From Escherichia coli (GTDB lineage: Bacteria; Pseudomonadota; Gammaproteobacteria; Enterobacterales; Enterobacteriaceae), in assembly GCF_013315695.1 (NCBI RefSeq), contig NZ_CP054353.1: a stretch of 64,000 bases of DNA. One strand, 5' to 3'. Every line of letters begins with the position of its first letter. The first letter of the stretch is position 1. A program made the translations under genes and the position numbers. Shown in pieces: positions 50,364 to 51,030 of the stretch. The notes below the pieces were generated by a model. The model was not told the origin of the DNA. It did not search any database and saw nothing but the letters and a program-made list of their open reading frames with translations.

Positions 50364-50855
50364 TCAATTTATGAGCGATATGGCATTGATTGACTTGATG
50401 ACTGCCCTCTGTATGTCTGCAACCAACTCATGTGGCAAACATTGATTAAGATACCCCCGATAAGTCCTTGCTCTGTTTAATCGATTTCGACTGACTTGTT
50501 GTACCAGGTCGGCTTTAGCCCAACGTATCTGCTGATCAAAGAATTGCAGGTCATTGATAACATTACTGGCTATTTCAACATGCATTCCACGATTTAACTT
50601 GTCATGGTCGCGAGTGGTTGATAATGGAACGACGATACATGCGTTGCCATTAATTTTTCCGTTGAGCACGACAACCAACCTATTTTTTATCATCTCAGGT
50701 GGAATGCGGCCATCGTAATACGTCGTGCTGAACTGTCCATTCTGGCTAACAGGATAGTTACCAAAGTTGCATTCCAGTATTTCACCAACCTTGGGGCTGA
50801 AATTAATCGCCACGAGTAAACCTCTCCTTAGTAAACTCTGAAAAAGTAATAACAC
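50364..50855 (-). CDS. yifN: YifN-like ORF with a PemK/MazF-like toxin-fold signature, up to 163 aa, non-ATG (GTG) start, no adjacent antitoxin candidate; may be a pseudogene
   Basis: ORF track protein ...VAINFSPKVGEILECNFG...KNRLVVVL...VVPLSTT... resembles the PemK/MazF pattern; opens at GTG with no convincing Shine-Dalgarno. Confidence 0.5.
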   Translation of the reverse strand: MLLLFQSLLRRGLLVAINFSPKVGEILECNFGNYPVSQNGQFSTTYYDGRIPPEMIKNRLVVVLNGKINGNACIVVPLSTTRDHDKLNRGMHVEIASNVINDLQFFDQQIRWAKADLVQQVSRNRLNRARTYRGYLNQCLPHELVADIQRAVIKSINAISLIN

Positions 50856-51030
50856 AACGTTACGACCCGATATTTTCTAAGTCTAATGGATTCATGATGA
50901 ACTCCGGTTTCGGCCTTCCCTCTCTGATTTAAACATCCGCAGCCATCCGGTTAGCGGTTTTCACTCGGTCACATTCAAATGCGATTCTGCTACAATCCTC
51001 CCCCCCGTTCGAAGATTGAGCAATATACCT

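Follow-up and report, generated by a model that had tools for sequence, protein, structure and literature searches.

We examined yifN, an open reading frame (ORF) between ppiC and rep, and the DNA around it in a 64,000-nt stretch of an Escherichia coli chromosome (NZ_CP054353.1; hereafter the window), which is 100% identical to the E. coli chromosome NZ_CP033635.1 and carries the genes ilvC, ppiC, yifN, and rep in this order. RefSeq names the product (WP_000996698.1) 'type II toxin-antitoxin system PemK/MazF family toxin', and an original prediction for this DNA had described an orphan PemK/MazF-like toxin gene with a non-canonical start codon, no convincing ribosome-binding site, and no partner antitoxin. 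Directly downstream of yifN we found a conserved gene for a structured small RNA with a predicted promoter of its own (Table 1); the span considered in the original prediction, 50364-51030, ends just short of this gene and its promoter (50258-50367). We regard it as nearly certain that yifN and the small RNA belong together as one conserved module, and with a candidate RNA partner downstream the reading shifts from an orphan toxin to a protein-plus-RNA module.

Table 1 Features of the yifN locus, in window coordinates
Feature	Coordinates	Strand	Remarks
Small RNA gene	50258..50332	minus	covariance model 85.9 bits, E = 3e-18; sole copy in the 64-kb window
Predicted small RNA transcript, ~70 nt	~50332 to 50265	minus	GUAGCCCAUAGAGGCCCUAAGUUUUCUCCCCUUGAGGGACCUGCGAAGCCCGGAUUUUCCGGGCUUUU
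Terminator hairpin (predicted)	50263..50290	minus	GCGAAGCCCGG-AUUUU-CCGGGCUUUUGC; U-tract 50268-50265; compensatory changes in 9/11 pairs
Hairpin 2 (predicted)	50294..50306	minus	UCCC-CUUGA-GGGA; compensatory changes in all four pairs
Hairpin 1 (predicted)	50318..50329	minus	GCC-CAUAGA-GGC; 100% of cells paired; variants GGC/GCC, CCC/GGG, CGG/CCG
Small RNA promoter (predicted)	50339..50367	minus	-35 TTGACA (50367-50362), 17-nt spacer, -10 GATAAT (50344-50339); 11/12 consensus
yifN coding sequence	50364..50813	minus	149 aa; GTG start 50813-50811; TGA stop 50366-50364; RefSeq WP_000996698.1 has the same coordinates
Longest ORF of the yifN frame	50364..50855	minus	163 aa from GTG at 50855
In-frame 5' extension of the longest ORF, 14 codons	50814..50855	minus	no counterpart in homologues
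yifN Shine-Dalgarno sequence	50821..50829	minus	AAGGAGAGG; 7-nt spacer to GTG 50813; read from sequence
yifN-rep spacer	50856..51030	none	promoter-like rep site (+ strand, 50968-50996); ORFs of only 9-20 codons

We compared the yifN-ppiC spacer with the collected loci by blastn, and the 50-100 nt after the stop codon proved 72-91% identical (mostly 75-91%) at nearly every locus; the proteins encoded at these loci are 45-75% identical. The conserved downstream DNA includes that of Pseudomonas plasmids and of a Legionellaceae genome, where the YifN proteins are only 45-60% identical. From 16 copies we built a covariance model of the small RNA. Its predicted layout runs, 5' to 3', from a conserved GUAGCCC through hairpin 1, a U-rich linker, hairpin 2, and ACCUGC to a terminator with a U-tract, and hairpin 2 repeats the design of hairpin 1, the common loop being C-W-U-(N)-G-A. 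In the alignment, 96% of cells are paired and compensatory double changes occur in 15 of the 18 pairs; none of 500 shuffles reached these values, and slid controls were 28-62% paired. The same variety is visible in the unaligned sequences, where the hairpin-1 stem occurs as GCC/GGC, GGC/GCC, CCC/GGG, CGG/CCG, and CGC/GCG, and the hairpin-2 stem as CCC/GGG, UCC/GGA, GCC/GGC, GCG/CGC, and UGC/GCA. The two hairpins of the Haemophilus RNA are identical copies (UCGGCUUAGACCGC), and the Betaproteobacteria Roseateles (L047 4537-4644) and Rubrivivax (L051 ~4540-4643) have a longer RNA with three or four hairpins of the type GCCC-UUYGA-GGCC, which suggests that the hairpin unit can be duplicated.

A transcript from this position has been detected before. 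Romero et al. (2014; PMC4681348) reported, from RNA-seq and Northern blotting, an MG1655 small RNA 'downstream of yifN on the same strand', the abundance of which varied with growth medium; it was one of several new transcripts and was given without structure, conservation, partner, or function. The gene number printed there, b3775, is that of ppiC, and the match to the RNA downstream of yifN rests on the paper's wording. This wording fits the small RNA gene, the MG1655 copy of which lies at NC_000913.3 3959906-3959980 (minus strand); the ppiC-ilvC gap is only 45 nt. The RefSeq records of MG1655 and BW25113 leave the small RNA unannotated, and Rfam 15 gave no family match in the window at E up to 1. 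In the literature that we searched, no paper ties YifN or PemK to a small RNA partner, although work outside it cannot be excluded. The gene yifN itself is known and annotated; its coupling to a conserved structured small RNA was found nowhere in the searched literature and libraries.

The element might be thought an ordinary end of the yifN transcription unit. In that case yifN would be a toxin homologue that is solitary or domesticated, under trans control or weakly expressed, and the downstream DNA would be merely a terminator or 3' untranslated region (UTR). Transcripts of yifN probably do run into the terminator of the small RNA, because there is no terminator between the stop codon and the RNA, and the failure to find a protein antitoxin (see below) would suit a solitary toxin. 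However, a sigma-70-like promoter with its -10 box ending 6-7 nt before the conserved 5' G is present at 36 of the 38 loci, near consensus in the window, and promoters with at least 9 of 12 consensus positions occur at 71% of loci vs. 0.7% of random positions. In addition, the small RNA gene is adjacent to yifN but on the opposite strand in two lineages (Shewanella and a Limnohabitans plasmid) and so is not a mere 3' UTR; the element outlasts the decay of yifN; it gives a discrete Northern band in K-12, where yifN is a pseudogene (PMC4681348); and two 5' hairpins with kept loops and covarying stems are not needed for a terminator. Judged from these sequence features, the structure, the separate promoter, and the opposite-strand copies exclude a simple terminator or 3' UTR, and we consider the solitary-toxin explanation highly improbable. 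In the window, the -35 box of the small RNA promoter overlaps the yifN stop codon TGA. As a separate observation, the -35 box at several loci (L004, L006, L023-L025, L034, and L049) lies within a short inverted repeat, TTGACG-N4-CGTCAA or TTGACA-N4-TGTCAA. This repeat could form a stem-loop at the 3' end of the yifN mRNA or serve as an operator; its window counterpart (50350-50367) is weak.

The protein gene and the RNA gene were found together in both directions of search. With the covariance model, a single copy was found at each of the 38 distinct YifN loci searched that have flanking DNA (24.9-97.8 bits), on chromosomes as well as on IncP-7 and IncX1 plasmids. For the reverse test, metagenome contigs were searched with a pattern drawn from the RNA alone. 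This returned 36 matches. In 34 of them a yifN homologue lies 38-130 nt upstream in the same orientation (the K-12-type frameshifted allele in 10 of the 34); the remaining two fall within GC-rich coding sequence and are not recognised by the covariance model, ~3 chance matches being expected. A blastn search of plasmids with the RNA gave 97 records with the same taxon profile as tblastn with YifN, and the RNA adjoins yifN in every plasmid record listed in both searches. None of these plasmid copies is annotated as an RNA gene, and a coding sequence for a hypothetical protein is predicted over at least two of the listed matches.

Several lineages have lost the protein and kept the RNA. The small RNA and its promoter are intact beside a broken yifN in the K-12 lineage and in Serratia quinivorans (L038), beside a yifN in three pieces in Rahnella woolbedingensis (L057) and in two pieces in Haemophilus paracuniculus (L059), and beside one with many frameshifts in a viral contig (L103). 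The converse, an intact yifN ORF without the RNA, was found at none of the 33 loci searched with the covariance model. The RNA scores the same, 85.9 bits, in E. coli strains with intact and with frameshifted yifN, and both RNA and yifN are missing from phylogroup B2. The RNAs of E. coli and Superficieibacter are set apart by only two single-base indels, without substitutions, over ~71 positions, and their yifN genes differ at 65% of synonymous sites. This asymmetry of decay is the pattern that would be expected when the RNA protects against the protein.

The same observations bear on a serious rival, namely that the RNA is an effector regulating other genes in trans and that YifN processes, stabilises, or chaperones it, so that the pair is not a toxin-antitoxin system at all. 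The strict, two-way linkage would suit such a partnership, as would the expression of the RNA in K-12 without a functional YifN (PMC4681348) and the position of the module among IncP-7 accessory genes of unknown function. The decay pattern speaks against it: at least five lineages with a decayed yifN still have an intact RNA, which argues that the RNA does not need YifN, and also that loss of the protein is tolerated whereas loss of the RNA alone was not seen. Moreover, the most conserved parts of the RNA are hairpin loops on covarying stems, which are typical of recognition by a protein and not of a pairing seed, and the MazF catalytic residues are invariant in YifN. We therefore take the effector reading seriously but think it unlikely.

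The most distant homologues (27% identity), in Vibrio phage 10N.239.311.A09_PE001 (L101 1921-2010) and in L007, stand directly after a CI/LexA-like repressor gene in temperate Vinavirales phages of Vibrio. On the 3' side of the Vibrio phage homologues there are about three direct repeats with UUAGAGG and UUGAGGG, motifs that equal the enterobacterial hairpin loops, and the opposite strand has a weak model match at 2138-2231 (10.7 bits). Among viral contigs we found no match to the RNA pattern, and only three distant or decayed yifN relatives. In a metagenome contig (L111 660-830), the gene for a 143-aa distant relative (P0164; profile E = 3e-19) is likewise followed by a TATAAT box and by a hairpin-rich stretch of ~110 nt that ends in a terminator. 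The sequence of this stretch differs from that of the yifN small RNA, so RNA partners may extend to the wider YifN family.

YifN resembles MazF in both sequence profile and predicted fold, which upholds the PemK/MazF similarity claimed in the original prediction. The protein matches Pfam PF02452 (PemK_toxin) with an independent E-value of 1.5e-10, and the match covers model positions 14-108 of 109. When YifN was modelled with AlphaFold from 31 homologues, the prediction (predicted local distance difference test 80.5, predicted template modelling score 0.75) matched ~40 MazF chains in Foldseek (E = 1.9e-5 to 2.6e-3; target-normalised template modelling score 0.70-0.78). The best structural matches were Mycobacterium tuberculosis MazF-mt1, Bacillus subtilis MazF (YdcE), and Staphylococcus aureus MazF (E = 2e-5 to 4e-4), with the type III toxin CptN (4rmo, E = 0.015) and CcdB among matches of lower significance. 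PDB sequence searches with the single sequence and with the YifN family profile retrieved no MazF. On sequence, the YifN family is a divergent MazF branch.

YifN keeps equivalents of the MazF catalytic residues. In the alignment of the 31 homologues 14 positions are invariant, R45 and S65 among them, and these two align with R29/T52 of E. coli MazF and with R25/T48 of B. subtilis MazF in two independent hhalign runs. The YifN motifs K-N-R-L-V-V-V-L and V-V-P-L-S-T-T correspond to MazF R-P-x-V-V-L and V-P-C-T-T. Other invariant residues are specific to the family (C15, P39, E40, K43, H78, W98, K100, and R111), and YifN is ~35-40 residues longer than MazF, owing to a long beta1-beta2 loop (~17-41, low confidence) and an insertion at ~80-97. 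Together, the Pfam match, the structural matches, and the two invariant residues support YifN as a predicted MazF-like RNase. The PADLOC and NCBIfam libraries gave no match for YifN. In PHROGs it matches phrog_15698 (E = 2e-32), a family of no given function, and the JGI family name is 'uncharacterized protein YifN (PemK superfamily)'.

A relation to the anti-restriction protein DarA of phage P1 was considered and rejected. Residues 84-119 of YifN share the motif FF.D...W...DL...S..RL...R with the N-terminus of DarA (residues 47-82; L021 2081-2680), and DarA is the top PDB sequence match for YifN both with the single sequence and with the profile, but this match is not significant (E = 0.6-0.8, 36 columns, hhalign probability 38%), DarA has too few residues before the motif for a MazF barrel, and it is missing among the fold matches.

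The start of yifN is best placed at GTG 50813, with a strong Shine-Dalgarno sequence, from comparison with its homologues. All homologue N-termini read M-[A/P]-I-N-F, the window counterpart from GTG 50813 being M-A-I-N-F, and an AGGA-type Shine-Dalgarno sequence precedes the corresponding start codon by 6-9 nt in 15 other loci. The start codon is not ATG in the window, in Pantoea, and in some Photorhabdus, and is ATG in Superficieibacter, Serratia, and Pseudomonas. The non-canonical start of the original prediction is thus a real GTG, but one that lies 14 codons downstream of the position claimed, and the ribosome-binding site said to be lacking is AAGGAGAGG, 7 nt before this GTG, which was missed because the longest ORF was taken as the gene. 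The 14-codon extension is probably 5' UTR rather than coding sequence. Two Ribo-RET starts for yifN (bioRxiv 10.1101/520783) were not used; the text names yifN and the legend of Figure S6B yjfN.

The window copy is under strong purifying selection. The ratio of nonsynonymous to synonymous divergence (dN/dS) is 0.056 in comparison with the syntenic orthologue of Superficieibacter and 0.033 when the comparison is with another E. coli allele, which indicates a functional gene that is not decaying. Both K-12 strains BW25113 and MG1655 have yifN (b3777) as a frameshifted pseudogene, as the original prediction had supposed; owing to a 1-nt deletion at nt 210, the product ends after residue ~70. The K-12 frameshift occurs in ~1/3 of carriers in an evenly spaced sample, and O157:H7 SS52 and other sampled strains have an intact gene. 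The gene is therefore intact in about two thirds of E. coli carriers, or about half of E. coli genomes, and the proposal of a decaying toxin module does not survive this count together with a dN/dS of 0.03-0.06.

Within the species the locus is polymorphic. The yifN segment is carried by ~73% of 5,426 complete E. coli genomes, and the remaining ~27%, such as the B2 strain IHE3034 (L020), have an unrelated ppiC-rep spacer of 86 bp. A segment of ~790 bp (window 50212-51030: small RNA, yifN, and upstream spacer) is accordingly an insertion/deletion polymorphism in E. coli, and therefore the rep promoter region differs between E. coli lineages. The window allele occurs with at least 99% identity in ~540 genomes and differs from the majority E. 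coli allele (e.g., L071) by a synonymous divergence (dS) of 0.17 and a dN of 0.006; so large a within-species dS hints at recombinational import of the segment. The apparently 'empty' 848-bp spacer of E. coli HH97 (NZ_CP116409.1, L003 2263-3110) has a C-rich, garbled, unalignable yifN region without an annotated gene and is probably an assembly or polishing artefact.

Outside E. coli the distribution is sparse and patchy, with 43 loci among ~100,000 species representatives; a profile search of 1.84 billion representatives gave 644 clusters at E < 1e-3 and 30 at E < 1e-30. Conjugative plasmids carry YifN homologues, namely the IncP-7 pCAR1 type in Pseudomonas, IncX1 in E. coli, and others in Klebsiella, Pantoea, and Limnohabitans. 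The position between ppiC and rep is common to E. coli and Superficieibacter only, and homology to the upstream spacer is likewise limited to E. coli and the syntenic Superficieibacter locus; by this comparison the yifN-rep spacer lies outside the mobile module. What is shared across genera is a compact, horizontally mobile two-gene module, as far as can be read from the loci, and its occurrence on IncP-7 and IncX1 plasmids suggests that it serves in plasmid upkeep or defence.

No protein antitoxin was found at any distance we considered. Upstream, 50814..51030 holds only ORFs of 9-20 codons (in a listing down to 5 codons), including the 11-codon ORF of the original prediction at 50895..50860, and there is no same-strand ORF of at least 20 aa upstream of yifN except a 56-aa TTG ORF antisense to the start of rep. 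In an all-against-all clustering of every ORF that reaches 40 aa and lies no more than 2.5 kb from one of the 43 loci, the only cross-genus families were YifN and its antisense shadow ORFs. The neighbours are wholly different among Serratia, Photorhabdus (beside mutS), IncP-7 plasmids, IncX1 plasmids, and Pantoea. The protein antitoxin that a type II system requires is thus absent from the surroundings of yifN. The original prediction was right in seeing none upstream, and of its orphan without a partner the protein half stands and the rest gives way to the conserved RNA, which could not have been recognised from a single sequence.

Two of the neighbourhoods deserve description in their own right. 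In a Pantoea agglomerans plasmid (L006 1868-3850, 4581-5462), the yifN homologue is divergent from the gene for a 660-aa UvrD-like superfamily 1 helicase and convergent with that for an AbiJ-NTD4 protein, an arrangement that mirrors the chromosomal yifN-rep pair in surroundings resembling a defence island. We treated a link to Rep/UvrD helicases as coincidence, since tblastn with Rep and with the Pantoea helicase found none at other non-syntenic loci. In the IncP-7 pCAR1-type plasmids (L004, L012-L019), the module is part of a long array of small ORFs, all on one strand and of unknown function; the array also carries an orphan N6-adenine methylase-like gene, a GNAT acetyltransferase gene, and a metallophosphatase gene, and the ORF directly 5' of yifN varies from plasmid to plasmid.

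An RNA next to a toxin gene could also act on the mRNA. The RNA would then be a type I-like antisense repressor that pairs with yifN mRNA, for instance at the ribosome-binding site, and blocks translation, and the C-rich 5' arm of hairpin 2 (UCCCC, anti-Shine-Dalgarno-like) and the purine-rich yifN ribosome-binding site would allow for it. We rejected this mechanism on duplex-energy controls. Cognate duplexes with yifN initiation regions reach -18.7 kcal/mol vs. -19.6 kcal/mol for non-cognate ones (permutation P = 0.93), and the window duplex is no better than those with shuffled targets (P = 0.25). In divergent members the C-rich motif is replaced by compensatory stem changes (GCC/GGC, GCG/CGC), the RNA gene is not antisense to yifN, and YifN is not a small hydrophobic peptide. 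Pairing with yifN mRNA is accordingly very unlikely to be the mode of action.

We propose instead a type III-like arrangement in which the RNA acts on the protein. YifN would be a MazF-family endoribonuclease toxin, and the small RNA, made from its own strong promoter, would be the missing antitoxin. The RNA would bind the YifN dimer directly, with one hairpin per protomer or RNA groove, and as a bound pseudo-substrate would keep the nuclease inactive, following type III logic. Should RNA synthesis stop, through loss of the plasmid or through shut-off of transcription by phage or stress, the short-lived RNA would decay and the nuclease would be freed.

MazF is an RNA-binding nuclease, a dimer with two RNA grooves. 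This arrangement is favoured because the toxin belongs to such a class of dimeric nucleases, because two equivalent hairpins with conserved loops and covarying stems form a signature of recognition by a protein, because type III toxins are of the same fold class, and because the decay asymmetry fits an antitoxin. We put its probability at about 0.5; the association of the two genes is shown, and the mechanism is inferred. The wider proposal, a new toxin-antitoxin class in which a MazF-family nuclease is neutralised by an independently transcribed structured RNA as a bivalent pseudo-substrate, with neither a MazE-type protein nor a ToxI-type repeat array, spread horizontally through chromosomes and conjugative plasmids of Gamma- and Betaproteobacteria and perhaps serving plasmid addiction or defence by abortive infection, falls slightly short of an even chance in our estimation.

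Several points weigh against the RNA-antitoxin reading. The link between YifN and the RNA is known from association, and K-12 resources cover the pseudogene and not the intact protein. The layout is unlike that of every known type III system: those have a processed tandem-repeat array upstream of the toxin gene, whereas here one RNA, with a promoter to itself, follows the gene. Neither PADLOC nor NCBIfam has a model for the module. Covariation was counted on a model-fitted alignment, which is biased to structure, although the changes are also visible in the raw sequences. The hhalign probability of YifN to single MazF sequences is low (4-15%), even if the runs agree with one another and with Pfam, and the most distant relatives (Vibrio phages, 27% identity) are without a clear model match.

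MazF and PemK are standard examples of type II toxins, a type taken to be defined by control through a protein antitoxin. RefSeq labels yifN 'type II' across thousands of E. coli genomes, although no protein antitoxin was found. If the RNA-antitoxin reading is true, a small RNA that neutralises a MazF-family nuclease would bridge type II and type III, and it would bring with it a new RNA family and a new mode of RNA-protein recognition through two C-W-U-N-G-A hairpin loops. It would also explain the upkeep of 'solitary' MazF-like genes, and an E. coli small RNA verified by Northern blot but so far unexplained would gain a function. At ~0.6 kb the module is small, and it occurs in O157:H7 and many commensals; K-12 has a naturally inactivated form and phylogroup B2 lacks it, so clean genetic backgrounds are at hand.

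Among known systems, YifN is closest to the type II toxins MazF, Kid (PemK), and ChpBK, with which it shares the predicted fold, the match to Pfam PF02452, equivalents of the catalytic Arg and Thr/Ser, and the C-terminal helix. It differs from these systems in that no gene for a MazE/PemI/Kis-type antitoxin lies nearby in the 43 loci, and in its longer protein, its family-specific invariant residues, and the coupled structured small RNA. YifN is thus a member of the PemK/MazF family, and the qualifier 'type II' given to it in RefSeq fails on the feature that defines the type. The features of type I systems are not found: antisense complementarity fails (P = 0.93) and YifN is a 149-aa protein of predicted soluble MazF fold rather than a small hydrophobic one. 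The 3' half of the small RNA bears a weak likeness (…UUGAGGG-C-G-AAA-CCC… terminator …UUUUGC) to the Pseudomonas rnk leader, RF01772 (rnk_pseudo), which matches the Pantoea copy (L006) at 31.4 bits, short of the gathering threshold of 55; the 5' architecture and the context upstream of rnk differ, and the window has no match at E < 1.

The likeness to the type III systems ToxIN, CptIN, and TenpIN lies in the genetic layout, a protein of Kid/MazF-related fold (here a predicted endoribonuclease) beside a co-inherited non-coding RNA gene, and extends to an RNA of repeated short structured units and to occurrence on plasmids and in chromosomal islets. Known type III antitoxins, however, consist of 2-6 tandem direct repeats upstream, with a terminator before the toxin gene, and are cut into units by the toxin, whereas the yifN RNA is a single ~70-nt transcript with two hairpins and its own sigma-70 promoter, encoded downstream and occasionally on the opposite strand; no tandem repeats of the ToxI kind were found in 50150-51100. 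YifN also falls outside the ToxN/AbiQ, CptN, and TenpN sequence families (in Pfam it matches only PemK_toxin, and PADLOC gives no match), and CptN (4rmo; 155 aa vs. 149 aa for YifN) is a distant structural match only. The genetic signature of the module nevertheless fits an RNA antitoxin, and by analogy the module, while not a member of ToxIN, CptIN, or TenpIN, would be type III-like in its proposed working.

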